Shown here: in pieces, positions 5,645-43,813 of the stretch
Position numbering within the stretch: position 1 is the stretch's first letter
Layout: each line of letters starts with the position of its first letter
Virus record (IMG/VR): IMGVR_UViG_3300014204_000107
Location: 203,468 to 267,467 of that record
Length of the DNA: 64,000 bases
Reading direction: 5' to 3' (one strand)
Source of the DNA: a virus
Lineage: Duplodnaviria; Heunggongvirae; Uroviricota; Caudoviricetes
Position numbers and translations under genes: made by a program
The notes under the pieces: model-generated
The model's input: only the letters and a program-made list of their open reading frames with translations
Told to the model about the DNA's origin: nothing
The model's database searches: none

Positions 5645-5939
5645 ATGAAGTTAAAAGAATTAAAACAATTAATAAAAGAAGAGATATCCATTGTATTAAA
5701 AGAATACGGCGAAGATTCAGGTGGTCAAGATATGACATGGGGGTATTTATAATAGACCAGCGGAACATAAAGATAGTGGAAATACTGATTTTATTGAAAA
5801 AGGCAAGGAAGATTATGATGATGGTGTTCCTTTTGATGCATGTCCATATGCATCCGGCGTTAATAAATGGTATAATATTGATTTAGCTGAATATTGGAAG
5901 CGTGGGTGGCAATTGGCTAAAAAAGAAAGTGAAGAATAA
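5645..5939 (+). CDS. Leader-tagged protein with ribosome modulation factor (Rmf/CrpP)-like motif; frameshifted at a G5 run (~5739-5743)
   Basis: AGGAG SD, then MKLKELKQLIKEEISIVLKE. Removing one G gives ...WGIYNRPAEHKDSGNTDFIEKGKEDYDDGVPFDACPYASG...AEYWKRGWQLAKKESEE*. Not in the ORF track. Confidence 0.6.
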
Positions 5940-5967
5940 TTTTAAAATAATATAAACGAGGTATGAA

Positions 5968-6642
5968 ATGCCAGCAAAATCAAAACAACAATTAAAATAT
6001 GTCTATTCAATGAGAGAAAAGCACCCAAATGCAAAAAATGCATGGTATTGGGATGATGAATGGACTGATGTTAAAATGAAAAGCTTGCCATCCAAAGTAG
6101 ATGAAACAATAGAAGAAGCAGTATTGCGCTACCAAGTTAGAAAACTCTTGAAAGAAGAAATTGGTGGCAATGCTATTGAAGATCGTATTTCATATACTAT
6201 CCAATTAGGTAATGGCCAAAGTGCTACCTTATTCTATAAAGTAGAAGGCAAAGAATGGATGATATATTATGAAATTGAAGGTGGTGATTCTATCTTTAGC
6301 GGAGCACCTATTACAATTGCAACTATTTCAAAAGATTTTATCAATGAAAACCAATTGAAGAAAATCGTGCAGTATTTCCAATACCTATATACTAAAAATG
6401 TTAAGGTTAAGCCTGAAGGTGGTGTTGTGCAGAATGAAGAAGAGCCAGTTGAAGGTGAAGCACCAGCAGCACCTGCTGAAAATACTCCTTCTGGTGAAGT
6501 AGAACAAACGCCCGGAACACCAGAAAGGGGCCCAGGTGGCCAATTCTTACCAAAAGGTGAAGAAGAAACACAAGCAGCACCGGAAGCAGGCATCGAAGAA
6601 CCAGCACCCGCAGAAGAGGAAGAAGAAAACCCATTTAAATAA
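5968..6642 (+). CDS. Hypothetical protein (MPAKSKQQ N-terminus, acidic Pro/Glu-rich tail)
   Basis: ORF with SD; internal degenerate leader LRYQVRKLLKEE. Confidence 0.6.
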   Translation: MPAKSKQQLKYVYSMREKHPNAKNAWYWDDEWTDVKMKSLPSKVDETIEEAVLRYQVRKLLKEEIGGNAIEDRISYTIQLGNGQSATLFYKVEGKEWMIYYEIEGGDSIFSGAPITIATISKDFINENQLKKIVQYFQYLYTKNVKVKPEGGVVQNEEEPVEGEAPAAPAENTPSGEVEQTPGTPERGPGGQFLPKGEEETQAAPEAGIEEPAPAEEEEENPFK

Positions 6643-6654
6643 CGGAGAAATAAT

Positions 6655-6897
6655 ATGAACAAACAAGAATTAAAACAATTAATAAAAGAAGAAATAAATA
6701 ATGTGCTAAAAGAATCAGTTGCATCTATGGCTAAAGTTGATATATATTATAGATATAAAAATGGTAAAACTGGTAGTTTATTTATTACGCATGCAAATGT
6801 TGATTTAGAAGAAATTCTCAAGGAATATTTCACAGATACACAATATTTGTCAAGTGATACAATAATAGATTCTGTAACAATAGAGGAGATCAGTTAA
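6655..6897 (+). CDS. Leader-tagged small protein
   Basis: MNKQELKQLIKEEINNVLKE; GGAG SD. Confidence 0.75.
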   Translation: MNKQELKQLIKEEINNVLKESVASMAKVDIYYRYKNGKTGSLFITHANVDLEEILKEYFTDTQYLSSDTIIDSVTIEEIS

Positions 6898-6898
6898 T

Positions 6899-7137
6899 AT
6901 GACACGCAAAGAACTTAAACAGTTAATAAAAGAGGAAATTAAGAGTGTCCTTAAAGAAGCAATAAAAAAACCGTTACACAAGAATTTGAAATTGGTGATG
7001 GCAAAATAGCAAAACCAGGGGATACTATTGTTTTAAGAGATAGAGATGCCGAACATTACTTTATAATTAAATTAAATGATAAAAATGTTTTTTCAATTTG
7101 GAAAAGAAAACCGTGGGTTGACTCCCATACAAAATAA
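6899..7137 (+). CDS. Leader-tagged small protein, frameshifted at an A-run (~6964-6970)
   Basis: MTRKELKQLIKEEIKSVLKEAIKK, continuing in another frame as TVTQEFEIGDGKIAKPGDTIVLRD...HTK*. Not in the ORF track. Confidence 0.6.
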
Positions 7138-7142
7138 ATATT

Positions 7143-7895: not shown

Positions 7896-7902
7896 AGGAT
7901 AT

Positions 7903-9558: not shown

Positions 9559-12500
9559 ATGGAAGAAGAAAAACAAAGTGCATTTTTCGATGGTTTAAAT
9601 AAGATGATGTCATCTGCAGTCATGATTCGGGGCACTACCGATAAGAAACTGCGAGTGATAGACTTAAATAAAGTTCAAGTCCAATCGAATTTGGAAACTA
9701 ATAGGTTAATAGACCGTTTTGCACGCGTTATTATGCCAATTAGAACATATGGTTATGACTATTCATATGCATTCCAAGGGTCCAGAATTGAAATATACAG
9801 GGACTATGAACAAATGGATATGTACCCCATATTGTCCAGTGCTCTTGATATTTATGCTGATGAATGTATAGGATCCGCAACAATTGTGCCAATGGTGGAT
9901 GGCAGAAAAATAACAATCAAAGAATTATATGATAATAATGAAAAGAATTTTTTAATATATGGCATTGATGCAAATAGTAAAAAAATTAAAATAATTGAAG
10001 CAAGTCATATTGCATATAATGGAAAAAAACAAGTATATAAAATTACGCTTGATGATAGCACAGAAATTAAATGTACTGCTAATCATGAGTGGGTTCGATT
10101 TGATAATGAATTAATAAGAACAGATAAATTAGCAGAAGGTGATTGGCTTTGCGCATTACCACAAGAATATCAAATAATTAAAATAGAAAAATTAGAAGGA
10201 TTATCTGATGTATATGATATAGTAAATGCAGGAGACAATCATATATTTGCAATTGAAACTAATGACGGTGGTAAATTATTTACACATAATTGCACTCTAA
10301 AGAACTTATATGGCAGGATTGTGGAAATAAAAACTGACAAAGACTACATAGCCGACTCTCTTAATAATTTATTTTACGATGTTTTAAATATTGACTTTAA
10401 CCTTTGGGCATGGGTGCGAAATCTCGTAAAGTACGGCGATTTTTGGTTAAAAATGGATATCACAGAAAAGCTTGGTATTACTAATGTAATTCCATTATCT
10501 CCATATGGTGTGCAAAGGGTAGAAAACCCAAACAACCCAGAAATGACTGAATTCCATTATGATGCGGCACTTGGCAATTATATGTACGGACAATCATTAC
10601 AGAAATTTAAGAATTATGAAATAGTGCACTTTAGATTGCTTTCCGATATGAACTATTTGCCATATGGGCGGAGCATTTTTGAATCAGCAAGGCAATTATG
10701 GAAGCAAATTGTATTATTACAAGATGCAATGCTTATTCATAAGTTAATGCGTGCGCCAGAACGCCGCGTTATTAAAGTAGATATAGGTAATATACCACCA
10801 GCTGAAGTTGATAACTACATGAATTCAGTTATTAATAAAATGAAGAAAGTTCCATATTTGGATGAAAAGACTGGGCAATATAATTTACGTTTTAATTTAA
10901 TGCCTGTAGCATATTATACGAATATTCCATTATTAGATGGTAGAACTATAACAATCAAACAATTAGCAGAGGAAACGAAGAAAGGCAAGAAAAATTATGT
11001 TTATTCTATAGATAGGGAAAATGATAATAAAATTGTATCTGGAGAGGTTCAGAGATGCGAATTAACTAAAAAAGATGCGGATATTGTTCGTATTTGGTTG
11101 GATGATGATAGTTATATAGATTTTGAATTAGAACATCCAGTAATGTTACGAACTGGTGAATATAAAGCAGCAAAAGATTTAATTGAAAATGATAGTTTAA
11201 TGCCATTTTATAGTAAATTTTCAAATGAAAAAGGCATTAAAGATTATGAAATGATTTTTGACCCAGCAGACCAAATATTTAAATATACTCATAGGGTGAT
11301 TGCTGAGCAATATAATATTGATAATTATATTGAAAATAATCATGTTGTTCATCATGCGGATTTTAATAGAAAAAATAATATTCCAGAAAATTTAGATTGT
11401 AAGATGACATTTGATGATCATATTAAATATCATCGAGATAATATTAAACTTTGGTTAAATACATTAACACCACAACAATGGGAAATCATTAATAAGAAAC
11501 GCAGTGATACTTGGAAAAAGAATAGAATTCTTGGTAAAAATAAATTATGGAACGAGGGAGAAACAAAAGAAACAAATGAATTAGTAAGATTATTAGGTGA
11601 AAATATATCAAAAACATTCACCCCAGAAAAAAAGAAGAAATATGCAGCTAGATTAAGAGGGAAACTAAATCCGGTACACTCAAAATGGATACAAGAAAAT
11701 TTTGTTCCATATGAAAGAACTGAAGAGCATAAGCAAGTATTAAGAGAAAAAATGTCTGGTGATAATAATCCAAATTATGGTAAGACGTGGGAAGAAATAC
11801 ATGGTAAAGAAAAAGCGGAAGAATTAAGAGAAAAAGTAAGTAATGTATCCCGTGATAAATTTTTAAAAAATAATCCAATGAAAACAGATGCTCAGAAAAA
11901 ACGGGCATCCAAAGTTATGAAGTTTGAAAATGGTAAACGGTGGTCAGATAATAATTTTAAAGAAAAAGTAACTATTGCAATGAGTCATACATATGATTCA
12001 TGGTTGATTGAGCAAATTAAAAAACAAATAAAATTATGTAATTTAAAAAATCTTAATGAAATTGTTAATCATTTAAATAAATGTAATGATATTGTTTCTT
12101 ATTTTGCAATTTTGAATGAAACAAAAAAAGGAACTGGTAAATTTTCAAGACATTCTATTGCAAAATTTGCAATCCGATTGGGCTATAAAAATATTGCAGA
12201 ATTAATTTTAGATGTAAAAAATAATTATATTATCAATCATAAAGTCAAGAAGGTAGAATTTTTAACTGAAAAAATTGATGTATATTGTATGTTGGTCAAA
12301 GATTATCATAATTTTGCAATTGATAGCCACGGTGGAAATATTCGTGATGGTATTTTTGTAAAAAATACTATGCTTGAAGATTTTTATTTACCAGTTAGAC
12401 CAGGGCAAGTAAATTCATCTATAGATACATTGCAGGGTTTAGTAATGGATTTCACGCCAGATTTAGAGTTCTTATTAAGCCAAATGTTTGCAGCAATAAA

Positions 12501-13359
12501 GATACCCAAAGCATTCCTGGGTTATGAAGAAGGCCTGAGTGCTAAGAATGTTTTATTAACGCAGGATGTAAGGTTTGCTCGCACAATAGAACGCGTTCAA
12601 CGTATTGTAGAATCTGAACTGTATAAAATAGCAATAATACATTTATATTCGCAAGGATATACTGGCGATGATTTAGTTAATTATAAGATTCAATTAACGC
12701 CATCTTCAATATTATATGAAGAAGAAAGAAATACATTATTAACTAATAAAGTTGATTTAGTTGGCAGAATTCGCGAGCAGAACTTATTACCTGATAAATA
12801 CATATATGAAGAATTATTTAATTTCAGTGAGCAGGAATGGCATCAGATGCGCAAGGATATGATTGAAGATTTAAAATGGCAATATAGAATAAAACAAATT
12901 TCTGACGAAGGTGTTGACCCATATGAGGAAGCAAATAAGATTAAAAACTTATTAACAAAGCAAGAAGGTGCTGGTGAGTTTGATTTAGCAAAAGGTGAAG
13001 AACAAGGCGGTGGTGCAGGGGAAGACATATTTGGTGGTAGCTCATTTGGCGGATTAGGTGGTGGCACTGAAACTGAAGGTGGAACGGAAGATATATTTGG
13101 TGCAGGAGAAGTAGGTGGGGCAGAAGGAACGCCCCCAACAGAAGGTGGACCAGAAAATATTACCGCTGGATATAAGAGTGGTAAAAATTTATTATATTCT
13201 CCAAATAATATAATAAGATTAAAATTAACAAACTATATTAAACAGCGGGGCAATACTAAATCATCAAAGTATATATTGTCTGAAGTACTCAACCAATTAG
13301 AGCATGAGCAGGAAGATATTTTTAACTCTGGCTATTTTGACGAAAAAAACTTAGAATAA
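9559..13359 (+). CDS. Portal protein (T4 gp20-like) containing two inteins
   Basis: ALDIYADE, YGRSIFE, RAPERRVIKVDIG, MLEDFYLP, KIPKAFL motifs; directly follows terL. Confidence 0.93.
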   Translation: MEEEKQSAFFDGLNKMMSSAVMIRGTTDKKLRVIDLNKVQVQSNLETNRLIDRFARVIMPIRTYGYDYSYAFQGSRIEIYRDYEQMDMYPILSSALDIYADECIGSATIVPMVDGRKITIKELYDNNEKNFLIYGIDANSKKIKIIEASHIAYNGKKQVYKITLDDSTEIKCTANHEWVRFDNELIRTDKLAEGDWLCALPQEYQIIKIEKLEGLSDVYDIVNAGDNHIFAIETNDGGKLFTHNCTLKNLYGRIVEIKTDKDYIADSLNNLFYDVLNIDFNLWAWVRNLVKYGDFWLKMDITEKLGITNVIPLSPYGVQRVENPNNPEMTEFHYDAALGNYMYGQSLQKFKNYEIVHFRLLSDMNYLPYGRSIFESARQLWKQIVLLQDAMLIHKLMRAPERRVIKVDIGNIPPAEVDNYMNSVINKMKKVPYLDEKTGQYNLRFNLMPVAYYTNIPLLDGRTITIKQLAEETKKGKKNYVYSIDRENDNKIVSGEVQRCELTKKDADIVRIWLDDDSYIDFELEHPVMLRTGEYKAAKDLIENDSLMPFYSKFSNEKGIKDYEMIFDPADQIFKYTHRVIAEQYNIDNYIENNHVVHHADFNRKNNIPENLDCKMTFDDHIKYHRDNIKLWLNTLTPQQWEIINKKRSDTWKKNRILGKNKLWNEGETKETNELVRLLGENISKTFTPEKKKKYAARLRGKLNPVHSKWIQENFVPYERTEEHKQVLREKMSGDNNPNYGKTWEEIHGKEKAEELREKVSNVSRDKFLKNNPMKTDAQKKRASKVMKFENGKRWSDNNFKEKVTIAMSHTYDSWLIEQIKKQIKLCNLKNLNEIVNHLNKCNDIVSYFAILNETKKGTGKFSRHSIAKFAIRLGYKNIAELILDVKNNYIINHKVKKVEFLTEKIDVYCMLVKDYHNFAIDSHGGNIRDGIFVKNTMLEDFYLPVRPGQVNSSIDTLQGLVMDFTPDLEFLLSQMFAAIKIPKAFLGYEEGLSAKNVLLTQDVRFARTIERVQRIVESELYKIAIIHLYSQGYTGDDLVNYKIQLTPSSILYEEERNTLLTNKVDLVGRIREQNLLPDKYIYEELFNFSEQEWHQMRKDMIEDLKWQYRIKQISDEGVDPYEEANKIKNLLTKQEGAGEFDLAKGEEQGGGAGEDIFGGSSFGGLGGGTETEGGTEDIFGAGEVGGAEGTPPTEGGPENITAGYKSGKNLLYSPNNIIRLKLTNYIKQRGNTKSSKYILSEVLNQLEHEQEDIFNSGYFDEKNLE
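9865..10290 (+). mobile_element. Mini-intein 1 in portal (142 aa, no endonuclease)
   Basis: Starts CIGSAT..DG; block B TANH; block F VYDI; ends HN followed by Cys(+1). Confidence 0.9.
10903..12366 (+). mobile_element. Intein 2 in portal with HNH endonuclease; starts with Pro (class-3-like)
   Basis: Removal restores RFNLM|TMLEDFYLP. Starts PVAYYTNIPLLDG; HNH motif VVHHADFNRKNN; block F VYC; ends KN followed by Thr(+1). Confidence 0.85.
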
Positions 13360-15164: not shown

Positions 15165-16877
15165 ATGATTAAACAATCAATAGGGTATTCAGCAATACCA
15201 TTTATAGTAACACCACAACAGTTACAAGAGTCAATGCGTAAGAACAATGGCATTGTTATTGTATCCGGTGTTATACAGCGTGCTGATTCATTAAACCAAA
15301 ATAAGCGCAAATATCCTAAACAAATATTATTGCGTGAAGTAGAAAGGTATAATAGTGATTTTATTAAACAAGGCAATGCCCTAGGTGAGCTTGATCACCC
15401 GGACTGCGTTCTTCCTGATACCAAGATACTTACAAAAGATGGTTGGAAATATATTAAAGATATATCAGAAGACGAAATAGTTGCAACACTGAATACCGTT
15501 ACTAACGAATTAGAATATCAACAAATAGTGCGAAAAATAGAACAGCATTATGCTGGTGAAATGATTGAATTTAAAAATGCAGTTTTTAGTGCATGTGTGA
15601 CGCCAAATCATAAATTTTATGTTATGCGAGGGGTCGACCGGCAGCGTGGTGAGTTTATTGCAGCAAATGAATTATATAAAACTGACGTAATTAATAAAAA
15701 ATGCAAATGGCAGGGTACTGACCAATTAGTTATGACATTTCCAGCAACTGGTATTAAAGAATCTTATTCTGTTGATACGGAGGCATTTTGTAATTTTTTG
15801 GGTTGGTATATAGCAGAAGGATATATTAGTCAATATAAAGGTAATATGGTGTATATTAGTCAATCTAAAAAAGAAGGCAAAGAACAAATAATTGCAATGT
15901 TAGATCAAATGCCATATCACTGGAATTATTATGTTGGTAAAAATGATGAGTGGGTATTTTATATTATTGATAAGGCATTATATGAATATTTAAAACCATT
16001 GGGTGGCAGTTATGATAAACATATACCGCAAGAAATCAAAAATCTTTCACCCAAATATTTAAAAATATTATTACGTTCATTAATGTTAGGAGATGGTACT
16101 ACAAATGGAAATGATTATTATACTGTTTCTCCTCAATTGGCCAGTGATGTTAGTGAGATAATTATTAAATGCGGATTATCAGCATCTATTACTGAGATTG
16201 ATAGAATTGATAATTATTATGTTATTAAAAATAAAGAAACTGGTGAAATTGAAACAATTAATAATATTTATTGGTACACCAAACCAAAATATGCAATTAA
16301 AGAAAATTTTGAAATTGTTGATAAAATAAAAAAGAAAAACGGAAAGATAATGTATATAATAAGAACCAAAGATTCTTCACATTATTTTTTTAATGAAATG
16401 GATAAAACCATTATTGATTATGATGGTATGGTATATTGTGTAGAAGTCCCAAACCATACTATATATTTAATGCGCGATGGTAAACAATTTTGGTCTGGCA
16501 ATTCAAGTATCGTTGAATTAAAAAATGCTTCACACCGCATATTAGAAGTATGGTGGAGTGGTGATGATTTATTAGGTAAGATAGAAATATTGCATGATGT
16601 AACACCGGCAGGGCACATATTATATAAATTATTTGAACGTGGCATTAAAGTAGGTATATCATCAAGGGGATTAGGTTCAGTAAAGCCTATTAATGAAGAC
16701 GGGGCAGTGGAAGTACAAGATGACTTTGAATTAGTTGCTTGGGACTTTGTTTCCAATCCATCTACCCAAGGTGCATATATGACAATGTTGCATGAAGGCA
16801 TTGACCCAGCAAATATGAACTTACATAAATTTATGAAAATGGAATCTATTATAAACTCAATATTAAGAGGTGAATAA
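15165..16877 (+). CDS. Prohead protease (T4 gp21-like) containing one intein
   Basis: NQNKRKYP, GELDHP (catalytic His), GISSRGLGS (catalytic Ser), DFVSNPS. Confidence 0.93.
   Translation: MIKQSIGYSAIPFIVTPQQLQESMRKNNGIVIVSGVIQRADSLNQNKRKYPKQILLREVERYNSDFIKQGNALGELDHPDCVLPDTKILTKDGWKYIKDISEDEIVATLNTVTNELEYQQIVRKIEQHYAGEMIEFKNAVFSACVTPNHKFYVMRGVDRQRGEFIAANELYKTDVINKKCKWQGTDQLVMTFPATGIKESYSVDTEAFCNFLGWYIAEGYISQYKGNMVYISQSKKEGKEQIIAMLDQMPYHWNYYVGKNDEWVFYIIDKALYEYLKPLGGSYDKHIPQEIKNLSPKYLKILLRSLMLGDGTTNGNDYYTVSPQLASDVSEIIIKCGLSASITEIDRIDNYYVIKNKETGEIETINNIYWYTKPKYAIKENFEIVDKIKKKNGKIMYIIRTKDSSHYFFNEMDKTIIDYDGMVYCVEVPNHTIYLMRDGKQFWSGNSSIVELKNASHRILEVWWSGDDLLGKIEILHDVTPAGHILYKLFERGIKVGISSRGLGSVKPINEDGAVEVQDDFELVAWDFVSNPSTQGAYMTMLHEGIDPANMNLHKFMKMESIINSILRGE
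15405..16502 (+). mobile_element. Intein in prohead protease with LAGLIDADG endonuclease (366 aa)
   Basis: CVLPDTKILTKDGW start; TPNH; FLGWYIAEG and LMLGDG motifs; ends GN followed by Ser(+1). Confidence 0.9.
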
Positions 16878-19084: not shown

Positions 19085-19360
19085 ATGAAAATACTTGAAT
19101 TACGCAAATTAATTAAAGAGGAAGTTGAAAAATCACTTACTGATTTTAATGCATTACCAAAGAAATTTGAAGATGTTGAAATTGGCAAAGAATTTGGTGT
19201 ATTTGATACAGATTGCGGTGGCATTGTAAAATGGAAAAAAATATCTGAAACAGAAGCAAAACTTGTGTCAAAGCAGGAAAAAGAAAGCGATATTAAAAAA
19301 GGCGATGAAGCAAATTTCTCAAAGACTACAACTGTGCAAGTAAAAGAATCAAAAAAATAA
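19085..19360 (+). CDS. Leader-tagged small protein
   Basis: MKILELRKLIKEEVEKSL; AGGAG SD. Confidence 0.7.
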   Translation: MKILELRKLIKEEVEKSLTDFNALPKKFEDVEIGKEFGVFDTDCGGIVKWKKISETEAKLVSKQEKESDIKKGDEANFSKTTTVQVKESKK

Positions 19361-19376: not shown

Positions 19377-19622
19377 ATGGATTTACAACCAAAGAAAGGA
19401 AAAGTAAGCTATTTTGGCAACAATGTAAAAGTAATTAATGGTAACATTGATGAAGCATTACGCAGATTAAAAGGAGCAGTAAAAGATTCTGGTGTTATGT
19501 TTGAATTAAAGCAACGGCAAGAGTTCTTACCGCCATCTGCCATAAAAAGAGAAGTTAAACAAAAGGCTATTAGAAAGCAACAATTAATTAGTTTACGCGA
19601 AAAAGAAGACAGATTAATATAA
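19377..19622 (+). CDS. rpsU: Phage-encoded ribosomal protein bS21
   Basis: VKVINGNIDEALRRLKGAVKDSGVMFELKQRQEFLPPS matches the bS21 pattern (ALRRFKR...GV..E.R.REFYEKPS); basic C-terminus. Confidence 0.85.
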   Translation: MDLQPKKGKVSYFGNNVKVINGNIDEALRRLKGAVKDSGVMFELKQRQEFLPPSAIKREVKQKAIRKQQLISLREKEDRLI

Positions 19623-19792: not shown

Positions 19793-21025
19793 ATGGAATT
19801 TTCCAAAGATTTTATTAAAGAAGCTGTAGCAGATTCAAAAGCATTACGCGAAACTGCATTGATAAATGCAAGAAAACAACTTGCTGAAGCATTTGAACCC
19901 AAAATAAGAGCAGCAATTTCAGACCAAATTGGTAAAGAAGTCGACGAAATGCCGATTGATCCAATTGACGCTGAGTTTGAAGGAATACAAGATTTAGCAA
20001 CAGATATGCCGGTAGACACAGAAGGCTTGCCAGTAGGTGAACAACCAGAAGAAATGGAACAAGAAAGCCTTGGCATTAGTGACGAAGACGTAGATATGCT
20101 ATTAAAAGAACTTGAAGGTGACGAAGAAGAAATGCCGAAAGACGCCGAACCAGAAGCAGAATTAGCAGCACCGGAAGATTCACCAATTTCTGCCGATGAT
20201 TTAGCAGGCGACGAATTTGGCGGAGACCAAGAAATTGATTTAGATAATCAGCAACTTGATGTAAATGTAGATGATGCAACTGCACCAGAAGCAGACGAAG
20301 TAGATGATTTTGATTTTGAAATTGAAATGGACGACGAAGGTGGCGAAACACAAGAAATTACAGTAGAGCCAGGTGAAACCGTAACATTAAAAATTAATGC
20401 TGTGCCTGAAGGTGAGGAAGCACCAGAAAATGATATTGATATGGGCGATGACGAAGAAGTTATTACATTAGATGACGAAGAACCCGTTAAAGAAGAAGGC
20501 GTGCAAACATTTAGTGATGACGACGAAATCATTTCATTAGAAGAATTAGCTAATGACTTAGCATCTAATGAACAAGAAGACCAAAAATATAAACTTGAAC
20601 TTGAAGAAGCTAATAAAAATTTAGCTGACGCATATAACGTAATCGAAGAATTGCGTGCAAAAATAAACGAAGTGGCATTGTTAAATGCAAAACTATTATT
20701 TACGAATAAACTGTTCAAATACGGTTTAAACGAACAACAAATGGTTCGTATTGTTAACTCATTTAATAAAGCAGAATCACTACGAGAGTGTAAATTAATT
20801 TATAATACACTCAATGAGTCTCTTAAGAATAAGCAAGTTCTTAAAGAGAAGAAAGAAACCACCTTGTTAGAACGTGCAGGTGTGCAATCAGCTGCAAGGC
20901 CAACAAGAACAACTAATGAAAGAACACTATTGAAAGAAACTGCTGAAACGCAAGATGATATTCAATACATACTTCCGCCAGAAGTTGTAGACAAATTACA
21001 AAGATTAGCAAAAATAAAGCAATAA
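19793..21025 (+). CDS. Prohead scaffolding/core protein (T4 gp22-like)
   Basis: Very acidic, coiled coil, INEVALLNAKLLFTNKLF; many LxE sites; directly before MCP. Confidence 0.8.
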   Translation: MEFSKDFIKEAVADSKALRETALINARKQLAEAFEPKIRAAISDQIGKEVDEMPIDPIDAEFEGIQDLATDMPVDTEGLPVGEQPEEMEQESLGISDEDVDMLLKELEGDEEEMPKDAEPEAELAAPEDSPISADDLAGDEFGGDQEIDLDNQQLDVNVDDATAPEADEVDDFDFEIEMDDEGGETQEITVEPGETVTLKINAVPEGEEAPENDIDMGDDEEVITLDDEEPVKEEGVQTFSDDDEIISLEELANDLASNEQEDQKYKLELEEANKNLADAYNVIEELRAKINEVALLNAKLLFTNKLFKYGLNEQQMVRIVNSFNKAESLRECKLIYNTLNESLKNKQVLKEKKETTLLERAGVQSAARPTRTTNERTLLKETAETQDDIQYILPPEVVDKLQRLAKIKQ

Positions 21026-30235: not shown

Positions 30236-30536
30236 TATGAAATTGGCTGAATTGAAACAATTGATTAAAGAATGCATTAATGAAGAAATAATTGCAGAGG
30301 GGGCAAGAATTAGATGGCGAAATTTACGAGTTGGTGATTATTTAATATGCATTAAAAATAAATTTGATGCTAAATTAGAGGTAGGGAAAAAATATAAAAT
30401 TATAAGTGTGTCTGAAAAAATGCATAGAATTTCAATTGAAATAGATGATAATCATATACCACACGGAATCACTGTTCCATCACCATATTTAACTCAATTT
30501 AGATTAATAAAAGATTATATAGGAGAATAATATGAA
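30210..30536 (+). repeat. 32-nt direct repeat (30210-30241 and 30505-30536) flanking the 30237 cassette
   Basis: TAATAAAAGATTATA(C/T)AGGAGAATAATATGAA, one mismatch between copies. Confidence 0.85.
30237..30530 (+). CDS. Leader-tagged small beta-rich protein
   Basis: MKLAELKQLIKECINEEIIAE. Confidence 0.75.
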   Translation: MKLAELKQLIKECINEEIIAEGARIRWRNLRVGDYLICIKNKFDAKLEVGKKYKIISVSEKMHRISIEIDDNHIPHGITVPSPYLTQFRLIKDYIGE

Positions 30537-30786
30537 CAAATTAGAATTAAAACAATTAATTAAAGAAGAAGTTAGAATTGCATTGCAAGAAGATTCAAAC
30601 GAAGAAAGATTGGCAAAATTGAAGCAATCTGACCCAAAAATATTTCAAATAATAGACGCAGTAAGGGCAGCCGATAAAATACCAGAATCAGAAATTGATT
30701 ATATTGGTGAGCGTGATTATATAGCATATAATGCCGTGCTAAATATTGTTAGGGTTAAAAGAATTGAAACGCCATATGACGATTAA
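30532..30786 (+). CDS. Leader-tagged small protein
   Basis: MNKLELKQLIKEEVRIALQE. Confidence 0.75.
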   Translation: MNKLELKQLIKEEVRIALQEDSNEERLAKLKQSDPKIFQIIDAVRAADKIPESEIDYIGERDYIAYNAVLNIVRVKRIETPYDD

Positions 30787-31321: not shown

Positions 31322-32629
31322 ATGAAATTAAAAGAATTAAGGCAATTAATAAGAGAATCTATTCAAGAAGTATTACTTGAAAGCTACGGTGACGGACTTA
31401 AACAGTTTGAAACAGATAATTATCATTTTAATAATCGAAATTCTTTTGATATTGCTGTTAAAAATATCAATAAATATTATAAAGATATAGATGTTGGTCA
31501 TTTTGATATGATTATTTCCCTTCCAAAAGGCAGTAAAATAGTTGATAAATTTGGTGTATCTGCTGATAGTTATAAACTAATTGATGAGGTGGTTCAAGAA
31601 ATATTGATGGCATCTCCTATGGAAAGCAAGCATTTTTATGATTCTCACCGAGATATCATATTACAAGATATAGAGCAATGGGCAAGTGAAAGCATGACAC
31701 TAACAGATGTAGCATTGGAGTTAGGATGGGACGAAGAGTCCGCAGCAAATAATTCTGATAGTACATTATATGGTGATTATGCAATACATATTGCAGGTAA
31801 TTACGATAAATATATTGGTAATCTAGAAGAGATTGAAGGAATGATAGATTTAAGAAATGATGTTAATGAAGAAGTATATAAAACAGGCGTAGATTCATCC
31901 AAATTTACTACTGCCGAAATAAAAGTAAAAATTAAACAGTTAGAAGATGATATAGAAGCATCAAAGAAAAGAAATGGGTCGGATGAATTCGTTCAAAGCA
32001 GGACTAAAATACTTAATAAATTTAAAGATGCATTAAATAAGACTAATGAATCAGTAGCAAGACCAAAAAGGAAATTTTTACGCGAATCTATTGATTTTAC
32101 CCAATTACAAAAAGGGCAACGATTTATCTTTACACATAAATATTCAGGCAAACAGCTTACTTTAGCCTATAAAGACGATGAAATATATAGCGGACAAAAA
32201 CTATATAATTTTAAAGATGTTGATACAAAACGTGAATATACAGATACAAAATATGGATTTAATGAAAAATATGATATAGATAAATTGCCGGATGCAGAAA
32301 CTACAAGAAAAGGCGGAGGACCGAAAGGGCCAACTGGCGCAAGAGGACCACGCAAATATTATACTAATTTAAGTGATAAGTATGCTAATAGATTAATTAA
32401 AGACTTTGTGCAACCATGGAAGTGGGAATTAGAACAATGGGGTGCAGAAGGTAGTGCTGATGCATTAAATGGTGGATTACCATATTCTAAAAAGCACTAT
32501 TTAGATTCAATTAGGGGATTTTTTCAAGATAACGGCGGAAAGAGGGAAGATAGTATTTATATATGGATGAAAGCATCAGGAATCGAAAACCCAGTGCAAT
32601 ATTTATTTGATGAAATGAGTTCAAGTTAA
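31322..32629 (+). CDS. Leader-tagged multi-domain protein
   Basis: MKLKELRQLIRESIQEVLLE; internal VNEE/TNES/LRES spacers. Confidence 0.7.
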   Translation: MKLKELRQLIRESIQEVLLESYGDGLKQFETDNYHFNNRNSFDIAVKNINKYYKDIDVGHFDMIISLPKGSKIVDKFGVSADSYKLIDEVVQEILMASPMESKHFYDSHRDIILQDIEQWASESMTLTDVALELGWDEESAANNSDSTLYGDYAIHIAGNYDKYIGNLEEIEGMIDLRNDVNEEVYKTGVDSSKFTTAEIKVKIKQLEDDIEASKKRNGSDEFVQSRTKILNKFKDALNKTNESVARPKRKFLRESIDFTQLQKGQRFIFTHKYSGKQLTLAYKDDEIYSGQKLYNFKDVDTKREYTDTKYGFNEKYDIDKLPDAETTRKGGGPKGPTGARGPRKYYTNLSDKYANRLIKDFVQPWKWELEQWGAEGSADALNGGLPYSKKHYLDSIRGFFQDNGGKREDSIYIWMKASGIENPVQYLFDEMSSS

Positions 32630-32640: not shown

Positions 32641-32964
32641 ATGACAAAGCAAGAATTAAAACAATTGATTAAAGAAGAGCTTAAAATTGCTTTAAAAGAA
32701 AGCAAAATTGATTATCAAATATATCACGGATCATATTCTTCTGCAATACAAACTGCAATAGAATATGCTAAAAAACGAGGGTATGATGTAGACGAAGATG
32801 ATATATGGAATAGAATATCTGTTGGGCCTGCGAAACCGCAGGATGGTAAAACAAATAGATTTAGTATTTCATTGATAAAAGATGGCAAAGAACAAAAGAA
32901 AACATTAAATATACAAATATATGGTATGGGTAATAAATATGAATTAAATTGCTATATTAGCTAA
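32641..32964 (+). CDS. Leader-tagged small protein
   Basis: MTKQELKQLIKEELKIALKE. Confidence 0.75.
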   Translation: MTKQELKQLIKEELKIALKESKIDYQIYHGSYSSAIQTAIEYAKKRGYDVDEDDIWNRISVGPAKPQDGKTNRFSISLIKDGKEQKKTLNIQIYGMGNKYELNCYIS

Positions 32965-36788: not shown

Positions 36789-38057
36789 ATGGAAAGTTTA
36801 AAATGTAAATATTGCGGAAAAGAATTAAAAAAAGGATTAAAATCATTTTGTAACCGTGAATGTTCAAGCAAATTTCAAAATAAGCAAGTAACAAAAATTT
36901 GTTTAGAATGCGGAAAAGAATTTGTAGTTGGATTAAATAGAGCAAATGCTGCTAAATATTGTTCATATGAATGTAAAGGCAAAGCAAAAATAAAAGAAAC
37001 GCATGAAATTAGAATATGTAAAGTATGTGGCAAAGAATTTAATGAATATAAAAATAAAAAAAGAGAGATATGTAGTGACAATTGCAGGAAAGAATGGAAT
37101 GCAAAATCAGAAAATAAAATTGCTAGGTTGGCAGCTACTGAGCAAGGTATTATTAAGAAATACGGAGTTAAAAGAGTTACAATGTTACCCCAATTTAAAG
37201 ATAAAGTTAATAATACAAAACGCGTAAAGTATGGTGATAAATTGGAACAAATAGTTAAAAAAGGCAAAAAAACTAAATTAGAAAATCATGGGAATGAAAA
37301 TTATAACAATATAGAACAAGGTCGCAAAACTAAATTAGAAAACCACGGAGACGAAAACTATAATAATCGCCCAAAATTTAACGAAACTATGCAAGAATTA
37401 TATGGTGTTGATTGGGCCATGCAGTCAGAAGAATTAAGACAACGAGCAATTAATACTTGGTTAATTAAATATGATGCTAATAATCCAATGCAAAATGCAA
37501 ATGTAATATTATCTGTTAAAAATACAAAAGATATAAAATATGGCGATTCTGGTTATAATAATTTTAATAAAACCAGGAAAACTAAAAAATTAAAATATAA
37601 TGATGAATATTATAACAATTCAAAGAAAACACAACAAACGTTGATGAATTTATATGGTGTTAATAATGCATTTTTGATAAGAAACGTAAAATCAAATGGT
37701 ATATTAATATCAAAACCACAAAAAAGAGTATATGAAGCAGCGTTATCAGCATATAAATCAGCATTATTGGAAGAATTTTTAAAAGATGTAATGCACAGTG
37801 TTGATATTTACATTCCAGAATTGCATACTATTATTGAAGTATATGGTGATTATTGGCATTGCAATCCAAAAATGTTTGATTCTACTTATTATCATAGCCA
37901 ATTACATATGACTGCACAAGAACGATGGGATAGTGATGCAATACGAATAAAGAAGTTTACAGATAGCGGATATAAAGTTATTGTATTGTGGGAGCGTGAT
38001 ATTAAAAGATATAAGAAAAAAGGTGCGTTAGTAGAATATATTAAAAAGATGCTATAA
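36789..38057 (+). CDS. Free-standing homing endonuclease (Zn ribbons, KYG repeats, Vsr/DUF559-like nuclease)
   Basis: Repeated CxxCGKEF...CS..C; repeats KTKLENHG.ENYNN; VDIY...IEVYGDYWH; VLWE. Confidence 0.75.
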   Translation: MESLKCKYCGKELKKGLKSFCNRECSSKFQNKQVTKICLECGKEFVVGLNRANAAKYCSYECKGKAKIKETHEIRICKVCGKEFNEYKNKKREICSDNCRKEWNAKSENKIARLAATEQGIIKKYGVKRVTMLPQFKDKVNNTKRVKYGDKLEQIVKKGKKTKLENHGNENYNNIEQGRKTKLENHGDENYNNRPKFNETMQELYGVDWAMQSEELRQRAINTWLIKYDANNPMQNANVILSVKNTKDIKYGDSGYNNFNKTRKTKKLKYNDEYYNNSKKTQQTLMNLYGVNNAFLIRNVKSNGILISKPQKRVYEAALSAYKSALLEEFLKDVMHSVDIYIPELHTIIEVYGDYWHCNPKMFDSTYYHSQLHMTAQERWDSDAIRIKKFTDSGYKVIVLWERDIKRYKKKGALVEYIKKML

Positions 38058-38112: not shown

Positions 38113-38346
38113 ATGAATAAGTTAGAACTGAAGCAATTAATTAAAGAGGAAATAAAACTTTCTTTAAAAGAAAATATGTCCATGTCTGCTTACGGAAAGC
38201 ATAAAACACAGTCAATTAGTATTACGAGATGGGAAGAAATATTGAGAGATTTGGCATATAATTTTAGAATTAAATATGGTGCATCTGAAATGGAATCATA
38301 TTCTTTTAAAGAATGGATGAATCTTTTTTTAAGTGAAATTAAATAA
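38113..38346 (+). CDS. Leader-tagged small protein
   Basis: MNKLELKQLIKEEIKLSLKE; has its own putative promoter motif, SD and terminator. Confidence 0.75.
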   Translation: MNKLELKQLIKEEIKLSLKENMSMSAYGKHKTQSISITRWEEILRDLAYNFRIKYGASEMESYSFKEWMNLFLSEIK

Positions 38347-38439: not shown

Positions 38440-38748
38440 ATGGGATATGTATATTTAATAGAGGCGTCAGATAATAATCAAACCATATATAAAATTGGAT
38501 ATACCAAGCATAAATTTAAAAGTAGAATACAAGGATTGAATACTGGCACAGCTGCCGATTTAAAAGAATTATATAAATTTGAAACAAAATATGGTAGATT
38601 GCTTGAAACATCTATGCATAATTTTTTAAAACATAAGCAAGTTAAGCGAGAATGGTTTGATTTAGACATTAATGATGTAATTAATTTTTTGCCGATGTGT
38701 AAGAAGATTGAAAATAATTTAGATATAATATCGAGGAATATAGCATGA
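38440..38748 (+). CDS. GIY-YIG family (T5orf172/MUG113-like) nuclease
   Basis: GYVYLI...YKIGYT...R...L...E...H...EWF. Confidence 0.8.
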   Translation: MGYVYLIEASDNNQTIYKIGYTKHKFKSRIQGLNTGTAADLKELYKFETKYGRLLETSMHNFLKHKQVKREWFDLDINDVINFLPMCKKIENNLDIISRNIA

Positions 38749-39515
38749 ATAAAATGGAATTAGTTCAATTAATTAGAGAATGCATTAATGAAGAAATATC
38801 TAAATTTAAAGGTAATACAATTCGCTTAACTGAAGGTGGCAACGTATTTAAAAATGCTGATAATACTCCTGCGACAACAAGAATTAATAAAGAAGATGTA
38901 CTGCCGACTATTAAATGGTTGGAAAGTATAACAGGGTTGCCATTAGTAAATAATACACTTGGTAGTACTGGCATAGCTGCTCAATCTGGAGATTTAGACC
39001 TGGCAGTTGACGTTAATAAAATATCTAAACAAGAATTAGAAACTATTTTAAAACAATGGACTGCTAAAAATGGGCTTGATCATAGACTATTTATAAAAAA
39101 GACTGGTGATTCTGTGCATTTTAAAACACCAATTGTTGGAAAAACAGGAGAATATGTGCAGACAGATTTCATGTTTAGTGATAATTTAGAATTTACGAAA
39201 TGGCGTATGCGAGGCACGAGCCCAACATCAAAATACAAAGCACAACATAGAAATATATTAATATCGAGCATAGCAACATCATTAGGACTTAAATGGTCAT
39301 ATTTTAATGGTTTGGTAAGTAGAGAATCTGGTAAAGTAATAACAGATAACCCAGATGAAATAGCTGAAATATTATTAGGCCCCGGGCATACTGATAAAGA
39401 TTTAATATCTGTTGAATCCGTATTAGATGCAATTAAAGACTTGCCGAATAGGGATAAATTAATTGCAGACGCTAAAGAAACATTAAGTAGATTATATAAT
39501 GTAAATATTGAATAG
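38745..39515 (+). CDS. Leader-tagged Pol-beta-superfamily nucleotidyltransferase-like protein
   Basis: MNKMELVQLIRECINEE...LTE|GGNVF; LGSTG...SGDLDLAVD (GS...DxD); VQTDF. Confidence 0.65.
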   Translation: MNKMELVQLIRECINEEISKFKGNTIRLTEGGNVFKNADNTPATTRINKEDVLPTIKWLESITGLPLVNNTLGSTGIAAQSGDLDLAVDVNKISKQELETILKQWTAKNGLDHRLFIKKTGDSVHFKTPIVGKTGEYVQTDFMFSDNLEFTKWRMRGTSPTSKYKAQHRNILISSIATSLGLKWSYFNGLVSRESGKVITDNPDEIAEILLGPGHTDKDLISVESVLDAIKDLPNRDKLIADAKETLSRLYNVNIE

Positions 39516-39519: not shown

Positions 39520-39870
39520 ATGAAATTAAGTGAATTAAGGCAGTTAATTAGAGAATGCACTAATGAGGTATTATCGGAAAAAATTAGTGATAGAATATAT
39601 AGTAAAGAGGGCCTTATTGCTAGCAGAACTATACCACAAGAAATGAAAGATAAAATATTGCCATATGTTACATCACAATCATATTATATGAATAAAAAGA
39701 TGTTTGATCTTGCAATACCTAAAATTAAAGGAAAAAGTTTCAATGGCGTGGACATTGGTGCTGATAAAGATGGTTTTTTTGTATTTACACATCGCGCAAG
39801 ATCTAAATCTTATTCTACTATTGCAGACATTCCTAATAAAGATATAAAATTTATAGAAAGCACAGGTTGA
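39520..39870 (+). CDS. Leader-tagged small protein
   Basis: MKLSELRQLIRECTNEVLSE; ATG at 39520. Confidence 0.72.
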   Translation: MKLSELRQLIRECTNEVLSEKISDRIYSKEGLIASRTIPQEMKDKILPYVTSQSYYMNKKMFDLAIPKIKGKSFNGVDIGADKDGFFVFTHRARSKSYSTIADIPNKDIKFIESTG

Positions 39871-39871
39871 T

Positions 39872-40846
39872 ATGAAATTAAGCGAACTCAAACAGTTAAT
39901 TAGAGAATCTATCAAAGAATACCACGAAGACGCAATATCTGATAGTGAAGAATATCTATATACTGGTGCTTCACAAATAACAAATGCTGGTGATGGATTA
40001 TTTACTGCAATCGATATATACAAAGGAGAAATAATTAGTGAATTTAAAGGTGAAGTTCTTACTTATCAGCAATCATTAGAAAGAAAAAAAGAAAGTGGTG
40101 ATGATTATTTTATGGATTTGCCGAATGGCAAGGTATTAGATTGTAAAAGAACAAATGGATTTGCTAAATATGCTAATGATGCAGAAGGTTTTGGTGCAGG
40201 ACCACATAAAAATAATGCAAGAATTGAATTAGTATATGCTAAAGTTTGCTTGGTTGCTACAAAAAATATAAAAGCAAACAGTGAAATATTTGTTGGATAT
40301 GGCAAGAATTATTGGAATAATTTTAAAACAAAACATGCTATGACGGAAGAAGTAAACAATGAATTACCCAAATTAGTTTTATTAGTTGGCATCCCAGGCA
40401 GTGGTAAATCTACTTGGATTAATAGTAATAAACCAAAATGGAAAAATACAATAGTAATATCGCCAGATAATATAAGAAGAACAATGCTTGGTGATGTTAG
40501 TTCGCAGGCAGATAATAAAGCAGTTTTTGATATGGCAAAGAATAATACAATAGACGCATTAAAGAAAGGTACTAATGTAGTATTAGATGCAACGAATGTA
40601 AATACTCAATTACGAAAAAATTGGGTTAATAGTGCGCAAAGTCAAGTTAATTGCAAATTACAAGCTAAATTATTTTGGGTAGATAAAGAAAAGGCATATC
40701 AAAGAATATCTAGGGATATTGTAAATAAAGTTGATAGGGCAAACGTACCAAAAGAAAATATAGATGTAATGTATATTCAGTTTCTGCAATCTGTAAAACA
40801 TTTAAAAAGTGAAGGATATGAAATTATTAGAGATTATTTAGAATAA
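39872..40846 (+). CDS. Leader-tagged SET-domain methyltransferase fused to P-loop kinase (AAA_33/PNK-like)
   Basis: GDGLFT..DI.KGE, AKYAND, ATKNIKANSEIFVGYG (SET). LVGIPGSGKST, ISPD.IR, VVLDATN (kinase). Confidence 0.8.
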   Translation: MKLSELKQLIRESIKEYHEDAISDSEEYLYTGASQITNAGDGLFTAIDIYKGEIISEFKGEVLTYQQSLERKKESGDDYFMDLPNGKVLDCKRTNGFAKYANDAEGFGAGPHKNNARIELVYAKVCLVATKNIKANSEIFVGYGKNYWNNFKTKHAMTEEVNNELPKLVLLVGIPGSGKSTWINSNKPKWKNTIVISPDNIRRTMLGDVSSQADNKAVFDMAKNNTIDALKKGTNVVLDATNVNTQLRKNWVNSAQSQVNCKLQAKLFWVDKEKAYQRISRDIVNKVDRANVPKENIDVMYIQFLQSVKHLKSEGYEIIRDYLE

Positions 40847-41308: not shown

Positions 41309-41392
41309 AAATAATTTAAAAAATATGTCTTTTTTTATTATGTAATATATATAATAGAAGCAAAGATAACAATAAATAAAAGGAGATGCTAA

Positions 41393-41884: not shown

Positions 41885-41980
41885 ATTTTATGCTATAGTA
41901 GCACTATTTAGATTAATACGCAATATTAGCAATGGTTTTTAGTGAAGTAATTCATTAAGAACATTTCTATATATATTGGT

Positions 41981-42237
41981 ATGGAAAAAAGAAATTGTAA
42001 ATTTTGTAATAAAGAATTTGAAGTGATCCCATCGAACCCCAAGCAATACTGTTCAAAAGAATGTGTTAGAATGGTAAAAGATATCATCGATATTCATACA
42101 GAAAAAATGCATTGCATGATAAATTAAAAATATTTGATCCATCATTATCCGAATGGCAAAATATGCAATTAAATGGCTATGATAGAATATGGGATTGCGG
42201 CAGTATGAAATTTGAGTTGATTTTAAATAAAAGTTAG
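41981..42237 (+). pseudogene. Internally deleted Hef-like homing endonuclease remnant
   Basis: N-terminal MEKRNCKFCNKEF...YCSKEC joined out of frame to HRYSYRK...SEWQNMQLNGYDRIWDCGSMKFEL, which resembles the C-terminus of 22870..24438. Confidence 0.75.
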
Positions 42238-42317
42238 AAAAGGCAAAAGAAATTCTAAAACACCCATATATATTATGGAACAATAAACTGGTTATAATTT
42301 AATTTAAGGAGTTACAA

Positions 42318-43208
42318 ATGGCAAAAATCACTGATAATGATAATATTGGCATAACCGATGCTGATCTTAAAACAAAAGCTGCCGCAGAGTGGCAACCTCT
42401 TCCAATGAACAATCCAACAATGGCACAATCGGATGAACCTGTGAAAACAGTATATCCAACTGAAATGGTAGATTTGCCATCAAAAGGATTAATATACGGT
42501 GAAAATAGTGCATTACGAAAAGGTAGTGTAGAAATACGGTATATGACTGCTAAGGAAGAAGACATTCTTACATCACCATCACTTATTCAAAAGGGATTGG
42601 TATTTGATAGATTGCTTCAAACGCTTATAGTAGATAAAATTAATTTGGATGAAATGGTATTGGGTGATAAAAATGCTTTACTTGTTGCCATTCGTAGATT
42701 AGCTTATGGTGATGAATATGCAGTAGATATTACATGCCCTGAATGTGGTGCTAAAAATAAAGATGTAAATGTCGATTTAAGCTTGATAGAAGATAAAGCA
42801 TTTCCAGAAGATAAATATAACGGTGTTAATGAATTTGATTTCTTCCTTCCTGCGACTAAAGTTGGTATTACATTTAAATTATTAACCCACGTGGATGAGA
42901 AAAAAATTAATGATGAATTAACGTATCTTAAAAAGATTACGAAAGATTCAAAAGTAAATCCAGAATTATCAACAAGGTTAAAATATATTATCACATCAGT
43001 TAATGGTGACAAAGGCCAAAAACGCGTTCGTGAATTTGTTGATAAAGAATTATTATCAAGAGATAGCCTTGCATTAAGAAATTACATTAGGGAAATTTCA
43101 CCTGATGCGGATATGACATTTGGGTTTGCATGTACTGAATGTGACCATGTTGGCAAGTTATCTATTCCTATGGAAGTTCAGTTTTTTTGGCCTAACGCCC
43201 GAATATAA
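42318..43208 (+). CDS. Tail assembly chaperone / baseplate hub assembly protein (T4 gp26-like)
   Basis: LPSKG..Y, MTAKEEDIL, CPEC...CTEC zinc ligands; ends FFWP. Confidence 0.8.
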   Translation: MAKITDNDNIGITDADLKTKAAAEWQPLPMNNPTMAQSDEPVKTVYPTEMVDLPSKGLIYGENSALRKGSVEIRYMTAKEEDILTSPSLIQKGLVFDRLLQTLIVDKINLDEMVLGDKNALLVAIRRLAYGDEYAVDITCPECGAKNKDVNVDLSLIEDKAFPEDKYNGVNEFDFFLPATKVGITFKLLTHVDEKKINDELTYLKKITKDSKVNPELSTRLKYIITSVNGDKGQKRVREFVDKELLSRDSLALRNYIREISPDADMTFGFACTECDHVGKLSIPMEVQFFWPNARI

Positions 43209-43431
43209 ACGAATTAGGCTAGACCAATGTCTAGAATTAGGTTATTATTCAGAAGGGGCGTTTTCGTTTGAAAGTGCTTATAATTTACCAATTGCTTGGC
43301 GTATATATGCTTATAATTGGTTAGCAGATAAGAAGAAGAAAGAGCAAGAACAAATTGATAATGCTAACAAGGGCAAGAAAGGCCCTCCAAAAGTAAATAG
43401 ACCACATTTTGACCAACCATCTAGAAAATAG
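43180..43431 (+). CDS. Probable frameshift extension of the tail chaperone (gp51/gpGT-like)
   Basis: No ATG in this frame; overlaps the upstream ORF at a T7 run; AYNLPIAWR motif. Confidence 0.6.
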   Translation, partial: SFFGLTPEYKRIRLDQCLELGYYSEGAFSFESAYNLPIAWRIYAYNWLADKKKKEQEQIDNANKGKKGPPKVNRPHFDQPSRK

Positions 43432-43451
43432 ATCTAGATGGTTGTTTTTTT
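43414..43451 (+). terminator. Rho-independent terminator
   Basis: CAACCATCTAGA-loop-TCTAGATGGTTG plus T-run. Confidence 0.8.
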
Positions 43452-43492
43452 ATAGCTTCTAATATTTATTAATAGCAAAATGGAGACTGGTT

Positions 43493-43813
43493 ATGAACAA
43501 GGCTGAACTCAAGCAAATTATACAGGAAGAAATATATAATGCATTAGTTGATACATTTGAGCACAAATTATTAACTGAGGGAGTTGCTACGAGCATTGCA
43601 GACATGATATTTAAAATTATTGAAAAAAATAGAATACAGAGTCTTATGAATAGGGCGCAAAATATAGATCCTGAAATAGCTCGCCAAGTAAATAACTTTA
43701 AAATTGCATCAAAATCTCTTAAAGATTATTTAGAACAGGATTATGGTCGGGGTTCTAGCCCAAAAGATAAAGCAGAATTAATTAGCGTGTTACGAAACAT
43801 TAATAAAAAATAA
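43493..43813 (+). CDS. Leader-tagged small protein upstream of tape measure
   Basis: MNKAELKQIIQEEI...LLTE. Confidence 0.7.
   Translation: MNKAELKQIIQEEIYNALVDTFEHKLLTEGVATSIADMIFKIIEKNRIQSLMNRAQNIDPEIARQVNNFKIASKSLKDYLEQDYGRGSSPKDKAELISVLRNINKK

Follow-up and report, generated by a model that had tools for sequence, protein, structure and literature searches.

The internal proteins (IPs) of T-even phages are diverse and have only a capsid targeting sequence (CTS) at the N-terminus in common, and reviewers have suggested that the CTS is an evolutionary device for loading various proteins (PMC3012670, PMC9026906). IP propeptides are 10 to 19 residues long, and in the CTS of IPIII residues 4 and 7 serve targeting, while residues 8 and 10 serve processing (PMC9026906). 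The stretch of DNA analyzed here, called the window, comprises 64,000 nucleotides (bases 203,468 to 267,467) of the single 299,351-bp contig IMGVR_UViG_3300014204_000107, which has direct terminal repeats and is classed by IMG/VR as complete. Seventeen open reading frames (ORFs) of the window begin with a shared leader, an N-terminal amphipathic helix of 20 residues. With a probability of roughly 0.55, judged from sequence, this leader is an expanded T4-type CTS that would load the attached proteins into the capsid and then be released by the prohead protease. Feature coordinates below are window positions unless marked as genome positions.

Several traits are common to the leader and the CTS of T4 IPI, IPII, and IPIII (Mullaney & Black 1996; PMC9026906, PMC3012670). 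Both are short N-terminal tags on unrelated proteins in which two hydrophobic residues are followed by I-x-E, both are found with a T4-type S77 protease, gp23, and gp20, and in both cases the variable cargo genes lie partly off the head cluster. They differ in that the T4 tag has 10 residues and is carried by three genes, whereas the leader has 20 residues with two candidate cleavage sites and is carried by 26 genes in this genome and by at least 580 cargo clusters in metagenomes. The leader also falls into two subtypes, and its cargo is not mainly basic. A second parallel is offered by the inner-body propeptides of phiKZ, 201phi2-1, and SPN3US (PMC5694885, PMC7411985): many internal proteins of these giant phages are cut after Glu by a gp21-related protease, and paralogues among them have conserved N-termini for which prohead targeting has been proposed. 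These propeptides, however, span 80 to 130 residues and are cut at S/A/G-x-E sites, and no one short tag runs across dozens of unrelated proteins. Encapsulin cargo-loading peptides are also short, portable, and able to take unrelated cargo into an HK97-fold shell, but they usually stand at the C-terminus, make direct contact with the shell, stay in place without proteolytic removal, and belong to nonviral compartments. The tag principle itself is already known, from the T-even IPs and the giant-phage propeptides. New, as far as the searched literature goes, are the leader family (20 residues, two sites, two subtypes), its scale, its tandem arrays, and its host lineage; the leader motif strings were not found in the literature searched.

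The first-pass annotation, made from the letters of the window, had listed 17 ORFs that open with this helix and had divided them into two subtypes. Both points held: the leader was present at the start of all 17 (17/17), with an AGGAG-type ribosome site upstream of most, and both subtypes are genuine and occur again in other phages. In this genome the forms read MNKxELKQLIKEE... (subtype 1) and MKLxELRQLIRE(C/S)I... (subtype 2), and the hydrophobic stripe of the helix is formed by positions 6, 9/10, 14, and 17/18. The 17 ORFs are as follows, with scores from a leader hidden Markov model (HMM) where a number of bits is given.

5645-5752, + strand: leader ORF, 35 aa (MKLKELKQLIKEEISIVLKE...), 45.3 bits
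6655-6897, + strand: leader ORF, 80 aa, subtype 1, 47.3 bits
6899-7009, + strand: leader ORF, 36 aa, 43.2 bits
16879-17115, + strand: leader ORF, 78 aa, 48.7 bits, beginning 1 nt past the protease gene
19085-19360, + strand: leader ORF, 91 aa (MKILELRKLIKEEV...), 35.8 bits, the weakest among 21 strong matches
25027-26151, + strand: leader ORF, 374 aa, subtype 2 (..LIRECINEE..), cargo without a known family
26164-26409, + strand: leader ORF, 81 aa, subtype 1, leader HMM match
26419-26853, + strand: leader ORF, 144 aa, I-K-E12 present, residues 18 to 20 without L-x-E
30237-30530, + strand: leader ORF, 97 aa, subtype 2, leader HMM match
30532-30786, + strand: leader ORF, 84 aa, subtype 1, leader HMM match
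31322-32629, + strand: leader ORF, 435 aa, subtype 2, cargo without a known family
32641-32964, + strand: leader ORF, 107 aa, subtype 1, leader HMM match
38113-38346, + strand: leader ORF, 77 aa, subtype 1, leader HMM match
38745-39515, + strand: leader ORF, 256 aa, subtype 2, leader HMM match
39520-39870, + strand: leader ORF, 116 aa, subtype 2, cargo a phrog_3666-type domain
39872-40846, + strand: leader ORF, 324 aa; leader, SET domain, and AAA_33/zeta-toxin-like P-loop kinase in that order
43493-43813, + strand: leader ORF, 106 aa (MNKAELKQIIQEEI...), leader HMM match

The ORF at 5645 is broken at a run of five G residues (5737-5741), past which the +1 frame stays open to 5939; an error in sequencing, decay into a pseudogene, or a programmed shift could account for the break, and the frameshifted cargo had no match in Pfam at E ≤ 0.05. 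At 6899, a longer open frame goes on in +2 (region 6899-7142), and this ORF may be a truncated, broken, or frameshifted leader gene.

When a regular expression for the core motif was applied to all six frames of the window, exactly these 17 were retrieved, each at residue 5 after Met and on the + strand, with no internal occurrence. Searching the six-frame translation of the whole genome with the leader HMM gave 21 matches of 35.8 to 49.0 bits and five of 12.7 to 22.5 bits, the next match scoring 6.4 bits. In all, this genome has 26 leader genes, 17 in the window and nine outside it, and all 26 lie at an ORF N-terminus on the + strand, in keeping with the proposed restriction of the leader to N-termini. 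The so-called degenerate versions at 5968, 14256, 18614, and 24500 scored 3 bits or less and are not members. The motif I10-x-E12 was invariant in the genome members. An (L/I/V)-x-E at residues 18 to 20 is found in most members but not in every one (among the 21 strong matches, E20 in 12 and D20 in three). Past the leader the sequences were unrelated, as the first-pass annotation had stated, and no pair of cargo sequences, taken from beyond about residue 24, matched at BLASTP E < 0.1.

To follow the leader beyond this genome, we screened 1.84 billion representative proteins with a profile built on its 17 window members, which matched at least 580 protein clusters at E ≤ 0.001; the conservation counts that follow cover the 143 top-listed matches. 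Among the matches listed, the leader began at residue 1 in 131/143, and the others had a few extra upstream residues or fused neighboring leader genes. The family consensus was MKKSELRQ(L/I)I(K/R)EEIxK(V/A)LxE. In the same set of listed matches, E5 and E12 were present in 143/143, I10 in 142/143, and L6 and L9 (L or I at the latter) in 141/143 each; with Q8 and E13, these five positions were the most conserved of the leader. At residues 18 to 20 of the matches listed, L18 was found in 126/143 and E20 in 120/143, with D in 11 more, and residue 21 was mainly S, N, D, E, or A. Information content was 2.9, 1.2, and 2.5 bits at residues 18 to 20, 0.7 bits at residue 21, and about 0.2 bits afterwards, a sharp edge after E20 that is partly due to the query profile, yet positions 18 and 20 were more conserved in the matches than in the query.

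The leader is common among uncultured phages of aquatic habitats. Viral fragments in IMG/VR carried 3 to 12 leader genes each, in co-oriented tandem arrays, and 102 leader ORFs were located in 39 metagenome loci, co-oriented and up to seven of them consecutive. Further genes in common with this genome were found at 30 of 50 loci, and the core proteins of leader-bearing phages were only 40 to 55% identical. One locus (L012) was syntenic with the window over the sheath gene, leader genes, the tube gene, a leader gene, and the hub gene, and had no cargo in common with it, so that cargo does vary between relatives. In a 156-kb relative (96% complete), a gene for an S77 protease was accompanied by eight leader genes, and a tandem run of five of these lay about 85 kb away from that gene. 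Flavobacterium phage vB_FspM_immuto (MW353176.1) had three leader-like ORFs, with starts at 81481, 102250, and 113144. The motif was not found as an N-terminal leader in 185,579 prokaryote genomes. Among 60 larger family members compared with Pfam, 59 had no domain at all and the sole domain was DnaJ. When 50,697 phage records were searched by tblastn with the leader and with a leader protein from a metagenome, only one match was obtained (LR756508, E = 4), short leader queries being too weak for this program; profile and pattern searches worked. The metagenomic cluster P0027 had 123-aa and 251-aa forms, and some database proteins held two or three leaders per chain, which suggests either that adjacent leader genes were read as a single protein or that the fusions are real.

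A similar layout, in which a conserved leader precedes a hypervariable remainder and the genes stand in tandem, would also be expected of precursors of ribosomally synthesized and posttranslationally modified peptides, prochlorosin-like, in which the leader serves a modifying enzyme and precedes a hypervariable core. The end of the leader, however, is a T4 protease motif and not a GG/GA site. The cargo reaches 435 aa and includes folded enzyme domains, and no maturase family was present in the scanned neighboring genes; the reading was rejected on these grounds and is scarcely credible.

The helix could alternatively belong to one fast-diverging paralogous family, or serve self-association as a coiled coil with no common receptor, and both its hydrophobic stripe and the tandem arrays, which resemble those of duplicated families, would be in keeping with this. 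The cargo, however, comprises different folds (SET with kinase, DnaJ, and a domain of the phrog_3666 type with many leaderless homologues) without similarity to one another. In each protein, moreover, a self-pairing helix could change independently of the others; E5, L6, I10, and E12 were nevertheless about 99 to 100% conserved among the 143 matches listed. Common descent or self-pairing is thus improbable as an explanation.

The relation between leader and cargo was clearest for the protein encoded at 39520. Its cargo belongs to the small phrog_3666 family and had about 50 metagenomic homologues, and of the 30 aligned none carried the leader (0/30); these leaderless homologues align to the protein from residue 21, directly past VLSE. 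An AF2 model made with the homologue alignment comprised a helix at residues 3 to 21 (predicted local distance difference test score [pLDDT], 58 to 78), a short break, and a globular domain with pLDDT > 94, for which Foldseek identified no fold match in the PDB. The kinase part of the protein encoded at 39872 likewise has homologues elsewhere without the leader. Given the unrelated cargo, the start of homology at residue 21, and the separate domain in the AF2 model, the leader is a separable module fused onto preexisting domains. As a separate observation, no other protein was found with the architecture of the 39872 product, in which a SET domain (lysine methyltransferase fold) is joined to an AAA_33/zeta-toxin-like kinase. 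A search of the ESM Atlas with the 435-aa and 374-aa cargo gave no usable match.

Could the repeated unit be the DNA or RNA rather than the peptide? The leader copies share 61 to 80% identity over 71 nt, which could support homologous exchange, and the pair at 30237 and 30532 has nearly identical upstream DNA over about 28 nt. In AT-rich genomes, in addition, highly expressed genes often have AAA-rich codons after the ATG, so a recombination cassette or a translation-initiation enhancer with an incidental peptide could be imagined. Against this, synonymous codons at the invariant leader residues had the same distribution as across the whole genome (Leu6 was encoded by six codons and Ile10 by three), and, save for the pair just named, only the ribosome site was common to the DNA upstream of leader genes. 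It follows that selection acts on the leader peptide. Conservation also tracked amino-acid chemistry (K/R, L/I, I/V) across phages with core proteins of 40 to 55% identity. The cassette reading was rejected on the synonymous codon spread and is very improbable; recombination is perhaps a side effect, and the leader DNA repeats may help cassettes to recombine.

Likeness to T4 lies in the head genes and in the residues conserved in the leader. The long ORFs of the window all lie on the + strand (G+C content, ∼32%) and encode T4-type virion proteins, on which Pfam and PHROG matches agree (Pfam scores of 85 bits for Peptidase_S77, 238 for Gp23, and 172 for Portal_T4), and the window ends in the replication genes for SSB and UvsX.

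7903 (start): large terminase (TerL)
9559-13359, + strand: gp20-type portal with intein splicing domains and an HNH endonuclease
15165-16877, + strand: gp21-type prohead protease (Peptidase_S77, PF03420), split by an intein
19793-21025, + strand: scaffold candidate in the gp22 position, very acidic, helical ends conserved
21043-22737, + strand: gp23-type major capsid protein (Pfam and PHROG)
28430 (start): head-tail adaptor
34237 (start): tail sheath
41393 (start): tail tube
42318 (start): baseplate hub

A gp21-type protease had been reported in the window, and PF03420 matched it at 85.3 bits against a cutoff of 27, in two pieces around the intein. Its motifs GELDHP and GISSRGLGS align with GELNHP and GVSSRGLGS of T4 gp21, and the His and Ser at H85 and S140, which we take to be the catalytic residues of T4 gp21, are kept. 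The intein contains a LAGLIDADG domain and is inserted directly past the catalytic-His motif GELDHP. In the gp23 propeptide of this phage the sites LLE↓G, ILLE↓N, and QLVTE↓V (arrows mark cleavage positions, putative outside T4) fit an (L/I/V)-x-E rule. The clade as a whole keeps LLE↓G, ILLE↓N, and QL(V/L/I)xE↓(V/A), against LLE↓G, IFE↓N, and FLTE↓A in T4 gp23, a correspondence matched by eye as the automatic pairwise alignment was poor. Given the conserved protease residues and these capsid propeptide sites, the (L/I/V)-x-E cutting rule plausibly holds in this phage, and its S77 protease is presumed to be the enzyme that removes the leader.

The N-termini of T4 ipII and ipIII read MKTYQEFIAE↓A. 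With an offset of two residues, Y4, F7, I8, and E10 of this CTS fall on L6, L9, I10, and E12 of the leader. The leader offers two candidate cut sites, I-x-E ending at residue 12 and L-x-E ending at residue 20, the second of which is then followed by typical small or polar residues. A leader-like motif class is also seen at other T4 prohead N-termini (gp22, MLKEQLIAE↓A; gp24, MAKINELLRE↓S; gp21, MNEPQLLIE; gp67, MEGLIE↓A), although these are single genes for essential structural or core proteins, as opposed to the portable module on accessory genes described here. The scaffold candidate at 19793 has a CTS-like N-terminus as well (MEFSKDFIKE↓A; family consensus, M.DLLKE↓AIAD). Its relatives, at least 692 metagenomic proteins, form a large family of marine origin to which no Pfam or PHROG family corresponds. 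Members have an N-terminal helix that is invariant (LLKEAIADAKAVRETALANAK), repeated internal IIRELEGD motifs, and, at the C-terminus, a conserved NEVNLLNAKLLFTNKLFR helix. We presume that the scaffold candidate is the docking target of the leader; the ORFs at 13408 and 14256 are core candidates. The motif common to scaffold N-termini and cargo tags, in T4 and here, suggests a rule for tag origin in which cargo tags copy the N-terminus of the scaffold itself.

Gene neighborhood gave a mixed picture. The claim that all leader genes lie among late virion genes is correct within the window and fails beyond it, since nine members lie elsewhere in the genome and arrays in relatives lie among replication genes. 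Leader genes of the window are interspersed among those for head and tail and often begin 1 to 12 nt past the preceding gene, an arrangement that makes cotranscription with these neighbors likely. Outside it, a tandem array of five leader genes (genome positions 142,591 to 144,835) directly follows a gene for an S9-family peptidase, and single leader genes adjoin tail-like genes and genes for a CCA-adding enzyme, a glycosyltransferase, and ribonucleotide reductase. The S9 peptidase is a 614-aa protein of the prolyl-oligopeptidase family whose gene overlaps the first of the five leader genes by 4 nt (genome positions 140750-144835; L016:2751-6836). The main arrays of relatives are flanked by GroEL/clamp loader genes on one side and by exonuclease and glycosyltransferase genes on the other, near DNA polymerase and clamp genes. 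In the smaller relatives (L009, L011, L013, L026, and L030), the main array occupies a fixed slot from GroEL/clamp loader to exonuclease, and the corresponding slot of this genome (∼290 to 299 kb) has no strong leader gene, so arrays have changed place or been assembled anew from lineage to lineage. The sequence TATATA(T/A) recurs upstream of several structural genes; as a late-promoter marker it was rejected as too unspecific, with 294 and 317 copies on the two strands and a density only 1.6-fold higher in noncoding DNA.

These neighborhoods bear on a further explanation, by which the leader docks another common partner, whether a phage or host unfoldase or chaperone (Clp-like AAA+, GroEL, DnaK) or some other intracellular address, and steers folding, turnover, or location. 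Strong conservation over hundreds of unrelated proteins demands one trans-acting partner and does not name it. The genome encodes a Clp-like AAA_2 protein at ∼95.2 kb (genome position), arrays in relatives lie by GroEL in the replication region, members adjoin the genes for ribonucleotide reductase, the CCA-adding enzyme, and the glycosyltransferase, and one family member has DnaJ. A partner of this kind would leave unexplained why the invariant residues reproduce the targeting and processing positions of the T4 CTS, why conservation stops at L-x-E, and why the same motif class stands at the scaffold start and in the capsid propeptide. The argument from neighborhood is also a weak one against a capsid tag, as T4 ip genes too lie among non-head genes: ipII and ipIII are at a distance from genes 20 to 24, with denV on one side and the lysozyme gene on the other. 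We consider such a partner unlikely, although it deserves more weight than the other alternatives.

Capsid targeting followed by protease release, as the first-pass annotation had put forward, remains the best-fitting account, with T4-type head genes, the four CTS positions, the L-x-E edge, and a modular tag in its favor; its late-gene argument and its degenerate members did not stand. In such a system, the leader helix would dock the attached protein on the prohead scaffolding core during head assembly. The S77 protease would then cut after Glu, at I-x-E (residue 12) and/or L-x-E (residue 20), freeing the cargo inside the head, where it would remain with the packaged DNA and probably enter the host alongside it. 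A self-contained tag could be gained and lost by genes, which would produce tandem, fast-changing cargo arrays. We infer docking, cleavage, presence in the virion, and injection of the tagged proteins from sequence.

Several observations weigh against this account. What the leader has in common with the T4 CTS is a pattern spanning about seven residues, too short for a statistical test of homology. Glu13, which follows the first candidate site, is unusual for a T4-type cut, and several members are without the site at residues 18 to 20. The cargo has no T4-like basic bias, its median isoelectric point being about 7 with basic and acidic members similarly numerous. Nine of the 26 leader genes are located away from the structural module, and the main arrays of relatives lie among replication genes by GroEL, such that coexpression with head genes is uncertain. 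The Clp-like AAA+ (AAA_2) protein of this genome and GroEL in relatives offer other possible receptors for a shared helix. Finally, a literature search found no virion proteome or N-terminal data for this lineage.

By capsid protein, the closest cultured relatives (∼52% identity) were Microcystis phage Mel-JY01 and Flavobacterium phage vB_FspM_immuto, followed by an uncultured 484-kb phage (LR756508) and then Rhodothermus phage RM378; no nucleotide-level match to the genome was found in the phage collection. A comparable size and core gene list have been described for the "moraphage" lineage of aquatic metagenomes, with Bacteroidota as predicted hosts, in a paper whose text does not contain the term "N-terminal" (PMC12619734). 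A more far-reaching proposal, which we advance tentatively and at somewhat less than even odds, is that this aquatic T4-related lineage, probably infecting Bacteroidota, has made the CTS a general effector-delivery system. Dozens of interchangeable proteins per virion, including the SET-kinase, would bear a two-class address, be released by the protease, and be injected. The two classes, ..KEE(I/V)xxxLxE and ..RE(C/S)I(N/K)E..., may set different copy numbers, cut sites, or fates.

If capsid targeting by the leader is correct, these phages would carry a protein cargo far larger and faster changing than the few internal proteins of T4, mostly without assigned function and likely aimed at host takeover or defense evasion. 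Sequence is enough to list the cargo, which amounts to 26 genes in this genome and to at least 580 protein clusters in public data, and this makes the question of what large uncultured phages inject a testable one. The leader would also provide a defined 20-residue packaging tag for engineering phages of Bacteroidota-type hosts.

Other genes of the window were also noted. At 22870-24438, 36789-38057, and 38440-38748, the structural genes are separated by free-standing genes that resemble those for homing endonucleases (HNH type; GIY-YIG/T5orf172). A small ORF at 19377-19622, between the protease region and the scaffold candidate, occupies the slot annotated as ribosomal protein S21 (RpsU) in Mel-JY01 and is likely a phage bS21. 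The ORF at 26855-27487 has a lipoprotein-like signal start (MKKLLLFLVGLFIVILSTSC), which is unusual within a head-tail gene block.

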